From NCBI GenBank assembly GCA_030740765.1, contig JASLWR010000097.1, positions 1-8,690 on the forward strand: a stretch of DNA of 8,690 bases, in the 5' to 3' direction. Under the pieces are notes generated by a model, which was given only the letters and a program-made list of their open reading frames with translations, made no database searches and had not been told where the DNA came from. Positions 302 through 8,690 of the stretch are shown here, piece after piece (positions within the stretch are counted from its first letter, which is position 1; each line of letters begins with the position of its first letter). This stretch comes from Thermoplasmatota archaeon. GTDB lineage: Archaea > Thermoplasmatota > Penumbrarchaeia > JASLWR01. The translations under genes were made by a program, and so were the position numbers.

Positions 302-1957
302 ATGTCTATCAAGCTGTTGATAGTTGGCGGTGTTGCAGCCGGTGCTAGCACAGCTGCGCGAGCCCGAAGGTTGAACGAACATACAGAGATAATTTTATTT
401 GAAAGAGGGGAATTCATATCCTACGCCAACTGTGGACTGCCGTACTACATCGGTAGAGAAATTACCCATCGGGATCATCTGTTGGTAGCCACCCCGGAAA
501 TGCTGAGAAATCGGTTCAATATCGACGTGAGAACCTTTTCGGAAGTTACGAGAATCGATCGGGAAAATAAAAAGGTGACCGTAAAGAATCACATCAGCAA
601 CGAGAACTACACGGAAAGTTACGACAAACTGGTCCTCTGCCCGGGTGGCCGACCCATAAAACCTCCATTGGAGGGAATTGACCTCGATACCGTATTTTCG
701 CTCTGGACCATTCCCGATTCGGATCGAATAAAAACATATATCGAAAAGAAAAAACCCCGGTCCGCAGTGGTGATCGGTGGAGGATTTATAGGACTTGAGA
801 TGGTTGAGAATCTAGTGGCAAACGGCCTTGAAGTAACTCTGGTGGAGATGCTCGACCAACTAATGCCCCACCTGGATGTGGAGATGGCCTCCATAGTTCA
901 ATGTTATATCGCAAAAAAAGGATGTCATCTTCATCTATCTGATGCGGTTAGTTCTTTCCGTAAACTGGATGGACGTACGATGGTCATCACCGGAAAAGGG
1001 GAAGAAATTCATTGCGATATGGTCATACTTTGCATTGGCGTTCAGCCTAATAACGAACTGGCTAGAGAAACCGGACTGGAACTGGGTGAGAGGGGCGGCA
1101 TAAGGACCAACGAGCACATGCTGACCTCGGACCCGGACATCTATGCCGCCGGCGACGCAGTGGAGGTGACTGATTTCATCTCAGGTAAGCCCGCCATGAT
1201 TCCACTTGCAGGGCCTGCAAACAAGCAGGGTCGGATCGTGGCTGACAACATATTCGGTAGGAGGTCCGCCTACAGGGGAACTCAGGGGTCGGCTGTGGTA
1301 AAGGTTTTCGATATGACCGTTGGGCTTACCGGGAATAATGAAAAGAGTTTGAAACGTAATGGCATATCCTATCTTGTATCTTTCACACAGTCTTTTTCCC
1401 ATGCCTTCTATTACCCGGGGGCACATATGATGAATGTTAAATTAATATTCGATCCCGAGCATGGAAAGATACTGGGAAGTCAGATTATCGGGAACGAGGG
1501 AGTGGACAAACGTATAGACGTAATAGCCACGGCGATACGCGCAGGTATGACAGTTTTCGATCTCGAAGAACTTGAATTGGCTTATGCCCCACCCTATTCT
1601 TCAGCCAAAGATCCGGTGAACATTGCAGGATTTGTGGCAAGCAATATAATTCGCGGGGACATGAAGATTATAAAATGGTACGAATTGGATGAGATCAACC
1701 GGAATACACATATATTGCTGGATGTTAGAGACTTTGATGAGCTTGAAATGTATCCTTCCCTCACTGGTGCCGTACATATTCCTTTGAACGAGCTACGCGA
1801 CAGATTATCAGAACTGGCCAAGGACAAGACCTATATCATTTACTGCGCCATGGGTCAGCGCGGGTATATAGGTTATCGAATGCTCACCCAGCACGGTTTT
1901 AAATGTAGGAACCTCAGTGGTGGGTACTATCTTTATGATGCAGTAAAAGGATATTGA
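302..1957 (+). CDS. Pyridine nucleotide-disulfide oxidoreductase of the CoA-disulfide reductase / NADH oxidase family with a fused C-terminal rhodanese domain (CoADR-RHD, or CoA-persulfide/polysulfide reductase type).
   Basis: N-terminal FAD fold KLLIVGGVAAGAS. Redox Cys in the family motif SYANCGLPYY (TGT at 431-433). Second dinucleotide fold AVVIGGGFIGLE. GDA motif YAAGDAVE. The C-terminal ~100 aa carry a rhodanese-like active-site loop IYCAMGQRG (TGC at 1844-1846). The track ORF starts at TTG 290. I prefer ATG 302 because GGGTGAG (291-297) lies 4-5 nt upstream as a Shine-Dalgarno box. Stop is TGA at 1955-1957. Confidence 0.9.
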   Translation: MSIKLLIVGGVAAGASTAARARRLNEHTEIILFERGEFISYANCGLPYYIGREITHRDHLLVATPEMLRNRFNIDVRTFSEVTRIDRENKKVTVKNHISNENYTESYDKLVLCPGGRPIKPPLEGIDLDTVFSLWTIPDSDRIKTYIEKKKPRSAVVIGGGFIGLEMVENLVANGLEVTLVEMLDQLMPHLDVEMASIVQCYIAKKGCHLHLSDAVSSFRKLDGRTMVITGKGEEIHCDMVILCIGVQPNNELARETGLELGERGGIRTNEHMLTSDPDIYAAGDAVEVTDFISGKPAMIPLAGPANKQGRIVADNIFGRRSAYRGTQGSAVVKVFDMTVGLTGNNEKSLKRNGISYLVSFTQSFSHAFYYPGAHMMNVKLIFDPEHGKILGSQIIGNEGVDKRIDVIATAIRAGMTVFDLEELELAYAPPYSSAKDPVNIAGFVASNIIRGDMKIIKWYELDEINRNTHILLDVRDFDELEMYPSLTGAVHIPLNELRDRLSELAKDKTYIIYCAMGQRGYIGYRMLTQHGFKCRNLSGGYYLYDAVKGY

Positions 1958-3042: not shown

Positions 3043-4014
3043 CTACCATTTAACTTCCACGTCGTCGGTCCGATAGTTCTGGTTAACTTGCGATTGCTTT
3101 ATGGGAGTGGTAATGCCCCCTTTGTACATTTCAAGACCCGTAAACGCGATCATTGCACCGTTATCAACGAGAAGTCCACCCTCCGGGACAAAAAAATCCC
3201 CGTCTCTCTCTTCAGCCATGGTCCGAACCATCTGTTGTAGCCGCCTGTTCATGGCAACCCCACCTCCAAGAAGCACTTCTTTCTTCTCTGTATGTGCCAT
3301 GGCTCGCTCGGTTACCTCCGTGAGCATGGCGAAGACGGTCTCCTGAAGGGAATGACACAGTGAACCGAGAGGCACCTTCCCTTTTTTTGATAAGGCGGCG
3401 GTGAGGACACCCGAAAATGCAACATCCATACCCTTCACTGAATAGGGAAGCGGTATGTATTCATCACTCTTCAATGCCATTTTTTCGATCTTCGGACCTG
3501 CCGGGAAAGGCATTCCCAGCATCCTACCGAACTTGTCCAGCATGTTCCCTACACCGATATCCTGTGTTTCTCCGAACACGCGGTATCGGCCCTTCGCCTT
3601 TGCGATGACCTGGGTGTTGGCTCCGGAGGCATAGAGAAGGATGGGGTCCGTCGCTCCCACAATCTTCCCGATCTCCAGGTGTGCCACGCAATGGTTTACT
3701 CCTATAAGGGGGATGTCGAGCCACAACGACAGAGCCCGAGCCGCTGTGGCGGTGCTCCTCAAGCACGGGCCGAGTCCGGGCCCCTGGGAAAACGCTACCA
3801 GGCCCAGATCTCGTGCGGCGATCCCGGCTTTCTCGAGGCTTTCGCCAACCACTGTATGAAGAACGGCTGCATGATGGTTGGCCGCCTCCCTGGGATGAAT
3901 TCCTCCTGAGGGAGGCCGATACATATCCCTGACATTAGAAATGACTTTCCCCTCACCATCCACCACCCCCGCACCAAACGTGTGCGCCGTGCCTTCGAGA
4001 CCCAAAACGAACAA
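3043..4014 (-). CDS. kae1: Archaeal-type Kae1, tRNA N6-adenosine threonylcarbamoyltransferase (KEOPS catalytic subunit). It is stand-alone, not fused to Bud32.
   Basis: LGLEGTAHTFGAGVV N-terminus, PREAANHH, FSQGPGLGPCLR, metal-binding GVNHCVAHLE, GETQDIGVGN, PYSVKGMDVAFSG and VDNGAMIA. It appears collinear with Methanocaldococcus/Pyrococcus Kae1 as I remember them, through to the C-terminal YRTDDVEVKW. The start is ambiguous: GTG 4056 (track), ATG 4047 or TTG 4014. I prefer TTG 4014. It gives MFVLGLEGTAH, matching the usual 2-3 residue N-terminus of Kae1. It also has GGGAG (4027-4023) at SD spacing. Confidence 0.92.
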   Translation of the reverse strand: MFVLGLEGTAHTFGAGVVDGEGKVISNVRDMYRPPSGGIHPREAANHHAAVLHTVVGESLEKAGIAARDLGLVAFSQGPGLGPCLRSTATAARALSLWLDIPLIGVNHCVAHLEIGKIVGATDPILLYASGANTQVIAKAKGRYRVFGETQDIGVGNMLDKFGRMLGMPFPAGPKIEKMALKSDEYIPLPYSVKGMDVAFSGVLTAALSKKGKVPLGSLCHSLQETVFAMLTEVTERAMAHTEKKEVLLGGGVAMNRRLQQMVRTMAEERDGDFFVPEGGLLVDNGAMIAFTGLEMYKGGITTPIKQSQVNQNYRTDDVEVKW

Positions 4015-4036
4015 AATAACATCTCCCGTAGTATAA

Positions 4037-5539
4037 TTAATCCGCATTCCTTTCACGCCAATCGCGCAGAGCCCTGTATGTGAAGATCATATTCTTTGCG
4101 GCAAAGGTCTCATCAAGTCTCTTTCTCGTTGTATTTTGCGGGCATTTTCTCAGTTCTTCAGCATCGGCCTCCGCTATAGCTTTCATAACCTCTACGAAGC
4201 GGTTCATCTCCTCAATGGTCTCAGTCTCGGTGGGTTCAATCATTATGGCCTCGTGGAAGATCTGCGGAAAGTAGATGGTAGGAGCGTGGATTCCCTCATC
4301 CAGAAGCCACTTGGCCGCGTCCAGGGTGCTGGCCCCCTTTTTCTTGAGAATGCTACCGTTGAGGACGAATTCGTGCTTTCGGAGGCCTGGATATGGAAGC
4401 GGGAACAAATGCTCGAGTTTCATTTTCAGGTAATTCGAATTCATTACAGCAGCTTCAGAAACTTTCTCAAGACCATCTCCACCCACGAGCAATGTATAGA
4501 CATATGCTTTCACCAGGACGAGAAAATTCCCCAATTGACCATGAATCTTGCCAATGGTGTAAGGTAGTTTATGATGCAGATCAAATTTAATAGAACCGTC
4601 ATCCTTCACTAGTTTTAGAACACGAGGTACAGGAAGGAATTTCTCCAATTCTTTCGTAACTCCGATTGGACCTGCCCCTGGGCCCCCACCTCCATGAGGA
4701 GTTCCAAAGGTTTTGTGAAGATTGAAATGAACTATGTCAAATCCCATCTTTCCAGGTGTGGTCTTTCCCATCACGGCGTTTAGATTCGCGCCATCATAGT
4801 ACAGAAGAGCTCCGTGGGCATGCACCTTTTCAGCAATTTCCCGTACCCGTCTTTCGAATATACCGAGAGTGTTCGGATTCGTGAGCATGAAGGCACAGGT
4901 TCTATTGGATAGAGCTGCCTCCAATGCTTCAATGTTAACACAGCCGTCCCCTTCCGATGGTATCTCGATAACCTTGAGCCCGGCCATTGCCCCGCTTGCC
5001 GGATTGGTACCGTGGGCCGTATCCGGTAATATTACCTCGTCCCGTTCTTCCCCTTTCGCTTCGTGGAACGCCCTTGCGATGAGGAGACCGGTAAACTCAC
5101 CGTGAGCACCGGCTGCCGGCTGCAGTGTCACGGCCTCGATACCACCAATCACAGAAAGAATTTTTTCTAGTTCGTATATCAGTTCAAGGTTCCCCTGGAC
5201 CATATCAACCGGTTGCATCGGGTGGGTCAGGGCAAAACCCTCGAGGGAGGCCATCTTCTCCGAGAATTTTGGATTGTACTTCATTGTACAGGATCCAAGT
5301 GGGTAGAAACCGCTGTCCACGCCCCAGTTCATCTGCGATAGGCGCGTGTAATGCCTGGCTATTTCGACCTCGGTGAGACCGGGAATATTTATGTCGTCCT
5401 TCTTCCTGATCTCTTTCGGGATAAATTTATCGATCATGGTCGGGTCCAGGCATTCCTGGGAAAAGCATGCCGCCTGTTTCTCGATACAACCCATCTCAAA
5501 TATCAAGAGTTCATCGTATTTCGCCTGCCGGTAAGCCAT
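4037..5539 (-). CDS. gcvPB: Glycine dehydrogenase (decarboxylating) subunit 2, the glycine cleavage system P-protein C-terminal subunit.
   Basis: PLP-lysine motif HFNLHKTFGTPHGGGGPGAGPIGV. GSCTMKYNP. LQPAAGAHGE. Length of 500 aa is typical of split P-proteins. A strong SD, GGAGGTGG (complement of 5544-5551), lies 5 nt before the ATG (5539-5537). The start overlaps the gcvPA stop as TAATG. Confidence 0.95.
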   Translation of the reverse strand: MAYRQAKYDELLIFEMGCIEKQAACFSQECLDPTMIDKFIPKEIRKKDDINIPGLTEVEIARHYTRLSQMNWGVDSGFYPLGSCTMKYNPKFSEKMASLEGFALTHPMQPVDMVQGNLELIYELEKILSVIGGIEAVTLQPAAGAHGEFTGLLIARAFHEAKGEERDEVILPDTAHGTNPASGAMAGLKVIEIPSEGDGCVNIEALEAALSNRTCAFMLTNPNTLGIFERRVREIAEKVHAHGALLYYDGANLNAVMGKTTPGKMGFDIVHFNLHKTFGTPHGGGGPGAGPIGVTKELEKFLPVPRVLKLVKDDGSIKFDLHHKLPYTIGKIHGQLGNFLVLVKAYVYTLLVGGDGLEKVSEAAVMNSNYLKMKLEHLFPLPYPGLRKHEFVLNGSILKKKGASTLDAAKWLLDEGIHAPTIYFPQIFHEAIMIEPTETETIEEMNRFVEVMKAIAEADAEELRKCPQNTTRKRLDETFAAKNMIFTYRALRDWRERNAD

Positions 5540-6903
5540 TAGACCACCTCCATTGATTTCAGATCGGCAATCAATTTATCAATTGACCCGTTGGAATTCA
5601 TTTCAGTGGCGCAGAGGAGAAACGAATTTTCGAGTTCGGGGAAATCCGTTCCAAGTAGATAACCGAAAATGTTTCCCATTTTCAGAAGATCGTCATAGAG
5701 TTTTGCAGGATCAAATATATGCGGGTCAATGGTGACCACAAACTCATTGAAGAAATCACTTTTGAATCGCGGTGCGCTTATACCGTGAATCTTCGAAAGC
5801 TCTTCTCGGAGACGATGAGCATTGGTCAGATTGGCAAGACTCATCTCGTACAATCCTTTGGGCCCGAGACAAGCCAGGGTCATAGCGCATCTTACAGCGC
5901 ACAATGCCTGGTTCGAGCATATATTGGAGGTAGCTCGTTCCCTCCGTATATGCTGCTCCCTGGTTTGCAGAGTCATGACATAGGAATCCTCTCCATCGCG
6001 ATCCTTCGTGTATCCGATCAGTCTGCCAGGCATCTTCCGAACGAATTTCTTATTGCATGCAATGTACCCCGCACCGGGTCCGCCGAATGACGGCGGATTG
6101 CCGAATTGTACTTCACCGATTGCCACATCGGCCCCGGTTTCACCGGGATTCTTCATAAAGGGTGAAGTTAAGAGATTGAAGCCTTCCACGAATAGTGGTC
6201 TTTTTCTGCCCTCACCCAGCATTTCCGGTATTCTTGCGATATCTTTTTCCATTACACCGAAGAAGTTCGGATTTTCTACGTAAATACCACTTGTCTCACC
6301 GGTTATGGAACTTTCAAGACTTTCGAGGTCAAGCCCACCTGTCTTCGGATCATAGTCCACTGTCTTAATTTCAATATTCTGATACCTGGTATAATTTTCC
6401 AGAACCGACATCTTGGACATGGGTAAGGGACTTGCCACTATGAACTCTCTTTTTCTGGTAACCGCCTTGCACATGATGGCCGCTTCACCTATAGCCGTTG
6501 CCGCATCATACAGAGATGAGTTGGACATATCCTGGCCCGTCAATTCTGCAATGTATGATTGATATTCGAAAAGGCACTGAAGCATTCCCTGGCTGATCTC
6601 TCCCTGGTACGGAGTGTACGTGGTAAGGAATTCGCTTCTCGACGACAGATAATCCACCACGGCCGGTACGAAATGATTGTATACTCCGACCCCAAGGAAC
6701 GAATTTACTTCATTCAGGGATGTGTTCTTGGCAGTAATATCCTTGATGATCCGTTCAACTTCCATCTCGGTCTTTCCGGGAGGAAGATCCACCCCATTTA
6801 CCTTTACATCGTCTGGAATATCCGAGAACAATTCCTCCATGGAAGATATACCCATGTCCTTGAGCATCTTATCTTGGAAACACAAGTTTGGTATGAAGTC
6901 CAT
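5539..6903 (-). CDS. gcvPA: Glycine dehydrogenase (decarboxylating) subunit 1, the glycine cleavage system P-protein N-terminal subunit.
   Basis: TPYQGEISQGMLQCLFEYQSYIAELTG and the ELFSDIP N-terminal motif are typical of GcvPA. Its length and position directly upstream of gcvPB also fit. The track start at 6912 is a GTG lying inside the SD box AGGTGATC (complement of 6907-6914). The real start is almost certainly ATG 6903-6901 (MDFIPNL..). Confidence 0.95.
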   Translation of the reverse strand: MDFIPNLCFQDKMLKDMGISSMEELFSDIPDDVKVNGVDLPPGKTEMEVERIIKDITAKNTSLNEVNSFLGVGVYNHFVPAVVDYLSSRSEFLTTYTPYQGEISQGMLQCLFEYQSYIAELTGQDMSNSSLYDAATAIGEAAIMCKAVTRKREFIVASPLPMSKMSVLENYTRYQNIEIKTVDYDPKTGGLDLESLESSITGETSGIYVENPNFFGVMEKDIARIPEMLGEGRKRPLFVEGFNLLTSPFMKNPGETGADVAIGEVQFGNPPSFGGPGAGYIACNKKFVRKMPGRLIGYTKDRDGEDSYVMTLQTREQHIRRERATSNICSNQALCAVRCAMTLACLGPKGLYEMSLANLTNAHRLREELSKIHGISAPRFKSDFFNEFVVTIDPHIFDPAKLYDDLLKMGNIFGYLLGTDFPELENSFLLCATEMNSNGSIDKLIADLKSMEVV

Positions 6904-6933
6904 TATGATCACCTAATAACTTGGAACTTGATG

Positions 6934-6950
6934 TAAATTTTATAATAAAA
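6934..6950 (-). promoter_or_regulatory. TATA-box-like element for the gcvPA-gcvPB-kae1 operon.
   Basis: The minus strand reads TTTTATTATAAAATTTA, centred about 41 nt upstream of ATG 6903. That would place a transcription start near 6918 and give a short leader carrying the SD. It contains the palindrome TTTTAT-A-ATAAAA (6938-6950). Inference from archaeal promoter geometry only. Confidence 0.4.
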
Positions 6951-6994
6951 CTGTTTTGGAGTTATTGCATTTTGGGATGTCATTAAATTTTATA
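6934..6994 (+). repeat. Direct repeat of the 11-mer TAAATTTTATA (6934-6944 and 6984-6994), exactly 50 nt apart. Each copy is preceded by GATGT.
   Basis: Read directly: cttGATGTAAATTTTATAat and ggGATGTcatTAAATTTTATAct. The copies could be two TATA-type elements, or a duplicated promoter module, in the divergent region. Confidence 0.5.
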
Positions 6995-7059
6995 CTGGTA
7001 TCCTTAAAGTACAATATCTATAGATAAATAGTAGAATCTTTTGACGAACTATATTGGCG

Positions 7060-7076
7060 ATTCAATTCCTTTGAAT
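7060..7076. promoter_or_regulatory. Inverted repeat ATTCAA-N5-TTGAAT, a candidate transcription-factor site.
   Basis: Read directly (gATTCAAttcctTTGAATttcc). It is located in the divergent intergenic region about 45 nt upstream of the tRNA TATA-like box. Confidence 0.2.
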
Positions 7077-7092
7077 TTCCAATATTATCTAT

Positions 7093-7108
7093 CGAATTAC
7101 CGAATTAC
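7093..7108 (+). repeat. Perfect tandem duplication CGAATTAC CGAATTAC directly abutting the A/T box upstream of tRNA-Gln.
   Basis: Read directly at 7093-7100 and 7101-7108. It is immediately followed by AAAAAATATATATT. Confidence 0.6.
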
Positions 7109-7122
7109 AAAAAATATATATT
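7109..7122 (+). promoter_or_regulatory. TATA-box-like element (AAAAAATATATATT), the candidate promoter for tRNA-Gln and possibly glnS.
   Basis: It is centred about 43 nt upstream of tRNA position 1. That would imply a 5' leader of about 15-17 nt to be removed by RNase P. Geometry-based inference. Confidence 0.35.
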
Positions 7123-7159
7123 GTGTATCCGGTATGAGCCTAAAGTTCCGGGATATAGT

Positions 7160-7231
7160 AGCCCCGTGGTGTAGTGGTTAGCATCAGAGACTCTGGATCT
7201 CTGGACAGCAGTTCGAATCTGCTCGGGGCTA
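7160..7231 (+). tRNA. tRNA-Gln, anticodon CUG (7193-7195), 72 nt, with no encoded CCA.
   Basis: Hand-folded cloverleaf. Acceptor stem AGCCCCG/CGGGGCT (7 bp, A1-U72). U8. D stem GUGU/GCAU. D loop AGUGGUUA with GG. Anticodon stem AGAGA/UCUCU. Anticodon loop CU-CUG-GA (U33, G37). 4-nt variable region GGAC. T stem AGCAG/CUGCU. T loop UUCGAAU. Discriminator A73. The A1-U72, A73 and G37 combination is the archaeal tRNA-Gln pattern. Confidence 0.93.
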
Positions 7232-7325
7232 TCTTAGTATTGAACCCTCAATTGAACTCTGAGATATTCAAAAGAATCTTTATCTTGATTAATCTGTTTC
7301 TTCGTTATGAAAACGGTGAACTGAA

Positions 7326-8690
7326 ATGAAATCCCCCGATTCTCCACTGCACGACTTTATCCGCAACATAATCGATGAGGATAATGAGACGAAGAAGTAT
7401 GACGGCCGCGTACACACACGTTTTCCTCCCGAGCCCAACGGCTATCTGCATATAGGTCATGCTAAGTCCATCTGCTTGAACTTCGGGATCGCCAAAGAAT
7501 ACGGGGGAAAATGTAATCTCCGTTTCGATGATACGAACCCTTCAAAGGAGGAGACCGAATACGTACAATCCATCATCAACGACGTTAGATGGTTAGGATT
7601 CGATTGGGAGGACCGACTGTTCTTTGCCTCCGACTATTTCGAGCAGATGTACGAACTAGCGGTTCAGCTAGTTAAGTCAGGGAAGGCTTATGTAGATGAT
7701 CTTCCGGCCGAGAAGATCAGTGAGTACCGGGGAACACTCACGTCGGCAGGTAGAAACAGCCCTTATCGCCATCGTCCCATTGATGTGAACCTCGATCTCT
7801 TTTGCCGGATGAAAGCGGGAGAATTCAGCAACGGTGAGAAGGTACTGCGGGCCAAGATTGACATGGCCCACTCGAATATGAACATGCGCGACCCCGTAAT
7901 ATATAGAATACTCCACGCAGCCCATCACCGGACCGGGGATAAATGGTGTGTTTACCCCATGTACGATTGGGCCCACGGCCTCGAGGATTCGATCGAGGGC
8001 ATAACCCATTCGATCTGCACTCTAGAGTTCGAAAACCACCGGCCACTGTACGATTGGTTCCTTGAGGGGTTGGGTGTTTACCACCCTCAACAGATTGAGT
8101 TTGCACGCCTCAATCTTACTTACACGGTAATGAGCAAGAGGAAGCTTCTGGAGCTGGTAGAGGAAGGATATGTCATTGGCTGGAACGATCCGCGATTGCC
8201 AACCATAAGCGGAATGCGGAGAAGGGGATATTCCCCTGCCGCCATCAGGAACTTCTGTTCCCGCATAGGGATTGCAAAGGTGAACAGCACCATTGCAATA
8301 GAGTTGCTGGAACATTGCGTCCGAGACGATCTCAATAAAACGGCACTCAGATTCATGGGTGTTCTGAATCCTTTAAGGGTGGTCATCGACAATTATCCGG
8401 AAGGGGAGACGGAGGAAATGACGGCGGTGAACAATCCCGAGAACCCGGGGGCGGGAACGCGTAAAGTGCCATTCTCCAGGGTGCTTTATATTGAACGGGA
8501 CGATTTCATGGTTAACCCGCCAAGACGTTTCTACAGGTTGGGACCGGGTAGGGAAGTACGTCTGCGCTATGCATATTTCATGACGTGCAATGACTATATA
8601 ACAGATGAGAATGGCGAGGTTGTGGAGCTGCGGTGCACAATTGATCCGGCAACCCGGGGTGGGGATGCCCCGGATGGTCGCAGGGTGCGC
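7326..8690 (+). CDS. glnS: Glutaminyl-tRNA synthetase (glutamine--tRNA ligase), bacterial-type, without the eukaryotic N-terminal extension. The 3' end is truncated by the window edge (455 codons seen, roughly 100 more expected). It is absent from the supplied ORF track.
   Basis: Frame-3 translation from ATG 7326 has no stop through 8690. An in-frame TGA sits at 7317-7319 upstream. SD GGTGA at 7315-7319 lies 6 nt before the ATG. The product begins [72 protein letters not shown]. It continues with [67 protein letters not shown] and [21 protein letters not shown] motif at 7449-7460 and MSK at 8130-8138. The sequence appears collinear with E. coli GlnRS as I remember it, with a majority of positions identical by eye. 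That is far closer than any GluRS would be. Confidence 0.95.

Follow-up and report, generated by a model that had tools for sequence, protein, structure and literature searches.

A bacterial-type glnS gene coupled to archaeal-type tRNA-Gln genes in Thermoplasmatota: a probable tRNA-synthetase module

According to reviews of 2021-2022, no archaeon encodes a glutaminyl-tRNA synthetase (GlnRS), the reason given being that archaeal tRNA-Gln is unusable by bacterial or eukaryotic GlnRS (PMC9499178, PMC8762117, PMC8007984). Archaeal GlnRS genes have been named in passing in a few texts (for example, bioRxiv 10.1101/2024.07.04.601786). The present analysis concerns a stretch of 8,690 nucleotides from a Thermoplasmatota archaeon (contig JASLWR010000097.1), here called the window, in which a tRNA-Gln(CUG) gene precedes glnS, the gene for GlnRS. 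An earlier note on this DNA, made from the sequence alone, had proposed a cognate pair of an archaeal-type tRNA-Gln and an acquired GlnRS, and this proposal was borne out, with a bacterial-type enzyme acquired horizontally, by profile scores, alignment, a neighbor-joining (NJ) tree and the archaeal contig on which the genes lie. We consider it likely that the window holds the 5' half of a co-transcribed Thermoplasmatota tRNA-synthetase module for direct synthesis of Gln-tRNA, inherited and relocated as a block.

The closest described counterparts of the enzyme are the bacterial GlnRS proteins of Escherichia coli (PDB 1GTS/1QTQ family) and Pseudomonas aeruginosa (PDB 5BNZ), with which the archaeal protein shares its architecture, the HIGH and VMSKRK motifs, the Gln-pocket residues and Leu136; opening of the first base pair and reading of the anticodon are presumably alike as well. 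The locus differs from the E. coli system in its archaeal host, in a tRNA bearing A1-U72, C3-G70 and A73 instead of U1-A72, G3-C70 and G73, in an Asn at the position of E. coli D235, and in the placement of glnS within one predicted transcription unit together with a tRNA gene. The tRNA itself, with A1-U72 and A73, is of the kind that serves the archaeal indirect pathway of GatDE and a glutamyl-tRNA synthetase (GluRS) of the non-discriminating kind (PMC9499178). In contrast to that pathway, a dedicated GlnRS is encoded beside the tRNA here, and A73 is replaced by G73 in six related lineages. The gene arrangement resembles the pylT-pylS cassette, in which a tRNA gene likewise stands beside the gene of its charging synthetase, the two being inherited and relocated together. 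The pyl genes, however, form an orthogonal pair for the 22nd amino acid, both parts of which were transferred together, whereas the present locus combines a canonical amino acid, a foreign enzyme and a tRNA of native type. The GlnRS/YqeY fusion of the Deinococcus type (NF011291; PDB 2HZ7) supplies the top-scoring NCBIfam model, but the archaeal protein of 561 residues is without YqeY. Finally, a GlnRS gene has likewise been noted in metagenome-assembled genomes of Heimdallarchaeia (bioRxiv 10.1101/2024.07.04.601786), where it lies beside cox genes, linked tRNA genes being unmentioned in that text. No description of a tRNA-Gln-glnS module was found in the literature searched, which did not extend to Di Giulio 2020 on GlnRS distribution.

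The tRNA-Gln(CUG) gene and the glnS product

The tRNA-Gln(CUG) gene occupies positions 7160-7231 (+), where the Rfam tRNA model RF00005 scored 59.3 bits (E = 3.7e-11) against a gathering score of 29. ARAGORN reported a single tRNA in the window, also tRNA-Gln(CUG), with limits of 7159-7233; its 5' limit is 1 base too wide because T7159 can pair with A7231. The fold proposed earlier therefore passed both the covariance model and ARAGORN. Parsing of the window sequence gave A1-U72, G2-C71, C3-G70, G10, C34-U35-G36, G37 and A73, each of which had been read correctly before, and an anticodon loop of CUCUGGA. The bases following A73 are TCT, and hence no CCA is encoded. By the rule of Marck and Grosjean (via PMC9499178), A1-U72 together with A73 mark a tRNA-Gln of archaeal type, and both are present. 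The absence of an encoded CCA and a BRE/TATA-like motif upstream, which is a putative promoter, are further archaeal traits of this gene.

The ATG start codon of glnS lies at 7326-7328, leaving a spacer of exactly 94 nt (7232-7325) behind the tRNA gene on the same strand, as had been stated for the pair. The gene extends over 7326-8690 (+) as codons 1-455 of 561 and is cut by the window end; the full protein of 561 aa was taken from an 80-kb ENA contig (L001) with an identical locus, where its gene occupies 6532-8214 (-). The NCBIfam glnS equivalog model TIGR00440 gave 614.1 bits for the 455-aa fragment against a cutoff of 425.8, and the archaeal and bacterial GluRS models both remained below their own cutoffs on the glnS product. 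Pfam identified PF00749 and PF03950 in the window fragment and, on the full-length copy, PF03950 and PF20974, the two C-terminal beta-barrel anticodon-binding domains. The alignment to E. coli GlnRS runs from one end to the other (E = 7e-206), and the E. coli and P. aeruginosa structures were matched at E values of about 1e-206 to 1e-212 (688-710 bits). Residues R30, E34, Y211, C229, F233, Q255 and R260 of the E. coli enzyme are conserved, as are HIGH and VMSKRK, so that both the HIGH and the KMSKS-type motifs are present; in the Gln pocket, R32, Y213, C231, F235 and Q256 align with E. coli R30, Y211, C229, F233 and Q255. Judged from its sequence, the enzyme is an intact GlnRS of the bacterial type.

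The best NCBIfam score of all was that of the GlnRS/YqeY fusion model NF011291 (732 bits), yet this match spans profile positions 13-458 of 769 only, and on the full-length 561-aa protein Pfam finds GlnRS domains and no YqeY domain. Identity as a fusion protein was rejected, since the match covers the GlnRS half only. Despite the absence of YqeY, the PGAP name of the 561-aa archaeal proteins (P0002, P0135, P0166 and others) is "glutamine--tRNA ligase/YqeY domain fusion protein", because NF011291 outscores the plain glnS model on the GlnRS half alone.

Hundreds of relatives were gathered from genome and metagenome scans and a protein search, and 280 sequences were placed in an NJ tree with Kimura distances. 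The GlnRS fell within a clade of 129 sequences (99% bootstrap) that is nested among bacterial GlnRS and consists of 117 archaeal-type sequences and a sister set of 12. All 17 sequences that are labelled archaeal or adjoin an archaeal-type tRNA are among the 117, which include no bacterial labels. The sister set includes a Planctomycetota contig (L175), a TA06 bacterium and L087/L088, and two of its members are bacterially labelled; L175 carries tRNA-Arg(ACG), which we take to be a bacterial trait. L087 and L088 (77% identity, no adjacent tRNA, uninformative neighbours) were considered as members of the archaeal clade and rejected when the larger tree grouped them with the Planctomycetota and TA06 sequences, that is, with the bacterial sister group. 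Every labelled sequence outside the clade of 129 is bacterial, from which it follows that the archaeal GlnRS is of bacterial type. Among the matches listed, GlnRS identity is 76-80% across Thermoplasmatota and about 78% to the nearest bacterial relatives, Planctomycetota included.

Linkage, relocation and transcription of the gene pair

The comparison set comprised 11 distinct archaeal glnS loci from independent assemblies and about 150 bacterial relatives. In 10 of the 11 archaeal loci the tRNA-Gln(CUG) gene stands on the strand of glnS, 22-102 nt upstream of it, and in the eleventh (L176, CP070739.1) it is found 251 nt downstream. No tRNA-Gln was found upstream of glnS among the about 150 bacterial relatives, including L175, the closest that is bacterially labelled. 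Since the same order recurs in 10 of 11 independent archaeal loci and in none of the bacterial relatives, the adjacency is not a matter of chance.

What follows glnS varies between lineages. In the window lineage (window/L001, L007 and L172) the order is Gln(CUG)-glnS-Glu(CUC, intron), and it is Gln(CUG)-glnS-Gln(UUG) in L008 (CP070767.1) and in the metagenome contig L089. A second metagenome contig, L090, reads Gln(CUG)-glnS-Gln(UUG)-Glu(UUC); L174 (CP070798.1) reads Gln(CUG)-glnS-Gln(UUG)...Glu(UUC), and L177 (CP070724.1) reads Gln(CUG)-glnS...Gln(UUG)-Glu(UUC, intron). The order is lysS-Gln(CUG)-glnS in the metagenome contig L129 and Gln(CUG)-glnS in L178 (Thermoplasmatales ex4484_30). The genes flanking the module vary too and include gcvPA, HGD-D/BcrAD, class I lysS, cinA-rtcA, an AsnC-type regulator and a phosphodiesterase. 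The earlier note had also raised the possibility of an enzyme dedicated to one isoacceptor; the unit is not restricted in this way in other lineages, where glnS is flanked by both CUG and UUG tRNA-Gln genes.

A comparison with glnS-less loci bears on how the pair came to its present site. Homology by tblastx between L001 and L170, a close relative with a glnS-less gcvPA locus, stops at L001:8531, which is window position 7009, about 150 nt 5' of the tRNA; the synteny breakpoint thus falls in the zone 7009-7159. Relatives whose GcvPA is 87%, 65% or 59% identical retain gcvPA-gcvPB-kae1, with a PKD-domain gene or unrelated genes upstream, and neither the tRNA nor glnS was found upstream of gcvPA in these relatives, L170/L171 included. 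In the relative with the 87% identical GcvPA, tRNA-Gln(CUG)-glnS (91% identical)-tRNA-Glu(CUC) lies elsewhere on the same 30-kb contig. Because the glnS-less gcvPA loci also lack the tRNA, and the unit is present elsewhere on the contig, the tRNA goes with glnS and not with gcvPA, which points to movement as a block. Insertion of glnS beside a fixed native tRNA, for which this synteny check had been suggested, is accordingly argued against by relatives that lack both genes at this position. The comparison of loci indicates that the tRNA and glnS are inherited and relocated as one block. As in pylTS, adjacency is kept across lineages and the genes move as a unit; co-transfer of both partners from a donor, the other mark of such a cassette, is not what was found. 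The enzyme is of bacterial type, the tRNA is of archaeal type and the linkage is lacking in the bacterial relatives, and the pair was therefore assembled within archaea and then kept together.

A putative archaeal promoter with a BRE/TATA-like element (acaaaaaatatatattg) was read at 7107-7123 (+), 37-53 nt 5' of the tRNA start, and an A-rich plus TTATATA-like motif is present 35-50 nt 5' of tRNA-Gln(CUG) in 10 of 10 archaeal loci compared. The spacer at 7232-7325 (+) contains a Shine-Dalgarno-like GGTGA at 7315-7319, and in most related loci the start codon likewise comes after a GGTGA or GAGGTG-like motif. In five loci the spacer between tRNA and glnS is just 22-40 nt, again with a Shine-Dalgarno-like motif. 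As spacers of this length leave no room for a second archaeal promoter, co-transcription of tRNA-Gln(CUG) and glnS would be the simplest reading of the short-spacer loci. Similarity of the window spacer to that of L007 is limited to the region beside the start codon. An Rfam scan of the window gave no family match in the spacer, and a regulatory RNA at this place was rejected on that ground. The same scan matched V_AS7, a Vibrio antisense RNA, at 327-495 (-) inside the CoA-disulfide reductase gene; as this match reached 26 bits where the gathering score is 90 (E = 0.085), it was taken as chance.

The other genes of the window encode a CoA-disulfide reductase-rhodanese, Mrp/ApbC, the archaeal KEOPS protein Kae1 (TIGR03722), GcvPB and GcvPA. 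An NCBI protein labelled Candidatus Thermoplasmatota archaeon has the same sequence as the window GcvPB, and the truncated GlnRS of the window is also recorded under that label. The archaeal Kae1 and these two record labels identify the host as a Thermoplasmatota archaeon. Across the archaeal loci, the neighbours include Kae1 (TIGR03722), class I LysRS, PurP and an archaeal D-Tyr-tRNA deacylase, the NCBI labels are Thermoplasmatota, Thermoplasmatales or Methanomassiliicoccales, and four of the records are chromosome-sized (CP070767.1, CP070798.1, CP070724.1 and CP070739.1). At 3043-6912 (-) of the window, there are overlaps of 1 nt and 20 nt between gcvPA, gcvPB and kae1, a gene grouping that is kept in L167, L169 and L170; subunits of the glycine cleavage P-protein and the t6A synthase Kae1 are an unexpected operon partnership.

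Inspection of the tRNA genes around these loci revealed several additional features. The intron-containing tRNA gene 3' of glnS in the window lineage (L001:6306-6400 (-), L007:6777-6871 (+) and L172:7887-7981 (+); about 53 bits with Rfam) lies beyond the window end. By eye it was read as tRNA-Glu(CUC), position 37 being followed by an intron of 20 nt, and ARAGORN labels it "???" or Ser. Directly after it stands a 61-nt tandem repeat of 3.3 copies (L001:6110-6311 (-); also L007 at about 6880-7000), which folds as alternating hairpins (z -4.3); its units end in GGAGCA like the 3' end of a tRNA, and a 45-aa open reading frame is called over it. In L177, a tRNA-Glu(UUC) with a 36-nt intron (7746-7858 (+)) directly follows tRNA-Gln(UUG), about 1 kb downstream of glnS. 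In L174 (CP070798.1), a decayed tRNA-Gln(UUG)-like copy at 7740-7812 (+), scoring 30.5 bits with Rfam and bearing A73, a G2-A71 mismatch and C at position 10, stands between glnS and the intact G73 tRNA-Gln(UUG); it may be the remnant of an older A73 gene that was replaced by a G73 copy. The class I (archaeal-type) lysS lies immediately 5' of tRNA-Gln(CUG)-glnS in two lineages (L008:3189-4793 and L129:328-1155) and may represent an older context of the module. On bacterial metagenome contigs whose GlnRS is about 64% identical (L160:5764-5836, L161, L162:5868-5939 and L163), a tRNA with anticodon CUG is found about 110 nt downstream of glnS. These tRNAs carry U1-A72, C3-G70, G73 and a D arm unlike that of ordinary tRNA-Gln, and linkage of glnS with a tRNA gene so occurs also in some bacteria.

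Identity elements and competing explanations

Alignment of the 14 linked tRNA-Gln genes gave cloverleaves in which 99.7% of cells pair and nine pairs show compensatory change, for the most part within the T and anticodon stems. No variation occurs in the acceptor pairs 2-71 (G-C), 3-70 (C-G), 4-69, 5-68 and 7-66, covariation is free in the other stems, and pair 1-72 is weak in all 14 (12 A-U and 2 G-U). G2-C71, G10 and C/U34-U35-G36 of the E. coli identity set are present in the window tRNA and invariant throughout the 14. In place of the U1-A72 of that set the window tRNA has A1-U72, which is equally weak and reversed; in place of G3-C70, all 14 linked tRNAs have C3-G70; and in place of G73, the window tRNA has A73. 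G73 and G3-C70 are strong determinants for E. coli GlnRS (PMC9976931). The earlier note had counted G37 as a further difference, and G37 is indeed present in the window tRNA, but G37/A38 is found in the tRNA-Gln of related bacteria as well; the base is therefore no archaeal peculiarity and was rejected as an archaeal barrier.

The discriminator base is A73 in the window lineage (window, L007 and L172), L008 and L176, and G73 in six lineages (L089, L090, L129, L174, L177 and L178). Given that the discriminator of tRNA-Gln is A73 in archaea and G73 in bacteria (PMC9499178), the presence of G73 in six archaeal lineages represents a move toward the GlnRS determinant. Both A73 and G73 are compatible with the tree as the ancestral state within the clade.

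On the enzyme side, a set of presumed acceptor-contact positions was examined. Alignment to E. coli GlnRS confirmed the assignment of the Leu of YRGTLT to L136. The Asp of LEDSIEG, which had been equated with D235, aligns instead with D219, and the counterpart of D235 is Asn237 of LEFENH. The same Asn is found at the D235 position in PDB 1QRS, the best-scoring E. coli sequence. We take D235 to contact the G3-C70 pair and 1QRS to be a mis-acylating D235N mutant; the residue and the mutant were reportedly described by Perona in 1989 and by Arnez and Steitz in 1996. Asn occupies the D235 position in 110 of the 117 archaeal sequences, in 8 of the 12 sister sequences and in 45% of the other bacterial relatives, and was rejected as an archaea-specific feature because of the latter two groups. 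The transfer may nonetheless have been made easier by this Asn. Residue S132 (E. coli R130) is common to the archaeal clade and the sister group. Adaptation of the acquired GlnRS to a native archaeal tRNA, another scenario raised earlier, is not supported by these alignments: archaea-specific change is lacking at the acceptor contacts examined, and adaptation is seen on the tRNA side, as G73 in six lineages.

In the reading that we regard as likely, the observed gene order would be that of a module consisting of one archaeal promoter, tRNA-Gln(CUG), the acquired bacterial-type glnS and, just past the window end, the tRNA-Glu(CUC) with its intron; the gene after glnS in other lineages would be tRNA-Gln(UUG), either alone or together with tRNA-Glu(UUC). 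Transcription, processing and charging are predicted to proceed as follows. The module would be transcribed as a single precursor, from which RNase P and RNase Z would cut out the tRNA, so that the glnS mRNA would begin with a short leader containing the Shine-Dalgarno motif. GlnRS would then charge the linked tRNA-Gln directly with glutamine, which would supplement or replace the usual archaeal route via non-discriminating GluRS and GatDE. Recognition would rely on the elements common to bacterial tRNA-Gln, namely the anticodon, G10, G2-C71 and a weak first pair, with the weak 1-72 pair probably opened by the conserved Leu (E. coli L136) and the position presumed to read pair 3-70 (E. coli D235) being Asn. 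The discriminator would have shifted from the archaeal A73 to G73, preferred by E. coli GlnRS, in several sister lineages, and A73 would have been kept in the window lineage.

Several observations weigh against this reading. The window tRNA is without G73 and G3-C70, and at the acceptor-contact positions examined in the enzyme no archaea-specific change was found. The archaeal subclade of 117 has a bootstrap value of 27% in a simple NJ/Kimura tree, with 17 of the 117 assigned to archaea. In addition, the window spacer of 94 nt could hold a separate glnS promoter.

A more detailed history can be proposed tentatively and appears to us possible, if somewhat doubtful. Thermoplasmatota would have overcome the supposed barrier of archaea to GlnRS by acquiring a bacterial enzyme that already read the acceptor loosely (Asn at the D235 position), would have put it in an operon with its tRNA substrates and would then have changed tRNA-Gln in steps, A73 giving way to G73 as the GatDE route disappeared. 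The window lineage, with A73 and only the CUG isoacceptor linked, would be an intermediate that has survived, its bacterial-type GlnRS charging an acceptor end still wholly of archaeal type.

The acceptor end of the window tRNA could also be taken to mean that this tRNA is served mainly by non-discriminating GluRS and GatDE, the GlnRS being redundant, conditional or, in the window lineage, dedicated to CUG. The A1-U72 and A73 that it keeps are archaeal features tied to the GatDE route (PMC9499178), CUG is the sole linked isoacceptor in its lineage, and bacteria with both GlnRS and an amidotransferase are known (PMC4206432). We nevertheless judge such coexistence unlikely: L008, also with A73, has both isoacceptors flanking glnS, the weak 1-72 pair is equally what GlnRS needs, and G73 in six related lineages departs from the archaeal rule.

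The order Gln(CUG)-glnS-Gln(UUG)-Glu(UUC) seen in several lineages has the appearance of a tRNA cluster interrupted by a single gene, and tRNA genes are common insertion targets. On these grounds, glnS might simply have landed in an existing archaeal tRNA-Gln/tRNA-Glu cluster, its adjacency persisting by inertia and with no functional coupling. This neutral account is improbable, because the flanks have changed in at least six ways and yet the junction stays at 22-102 nt on the same strand, and because the unit has moved as a block within one lineage; spacers of 22-40 nt argue for shared transcription, and the linked tRNAs have changed their discriminator toward the GlnRS determinant.

A regulatory role for the tRNA part of the transcript, in which GlnRS would bind the nascent tRNA-mRNA precursor and tune the processing or translation of its own mRNA, would fit the same-strand order, the shared putative promoter and the very short spacers, and synthetases that regulate their own mRNA via tRNA-like elements are known (PMC9976931). 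The spacer, however, shows no conserved structure or sequence beyond the Shine-Dalgarno-like motif, and in L176 the tRNA lies downstream of glnS, and such a leader is accordingly quite improbable. An artefact of assembly or binning that joined a bacterial glnS to an archaeal contig, which the identity of about 78% to Planctomycetota GlnRS might suggest, has a negligible chance of being correct, as the identical window-lineage junction is present in independent ENA, JGI, NCBI and Logan assemblies and the junction recurs in the four chromosome-sized archaeal records, archaeal promoter-like and Shine-Dalgarno-like signals flank it, and the GC content of glnS is like that of neighbouring genes and unremarkable.

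Contrary to the reviews, then, a broad archaeal clade appears to carry an intact bacterial-type GlnRS that is physically coupled to archaeal-type tRNA-Gln genes, and both discriminator states, A73 and G73, occur among the linked tRNA-Gln. The module likely shown by the window would be the second clear tRNA-synthetase gene module after pylTS. The sequences named here are candidates for natural pairs of GlnRS and tRNA whose identity rules are unusual, and they make it testable how a synthetase crosses the domain boundary when tRNA identity differs. If the stepwise history proposed above were true, these loci would record, in nature, how a tRNA identity set was rewritten after cross-domain transfer of a synthetase.

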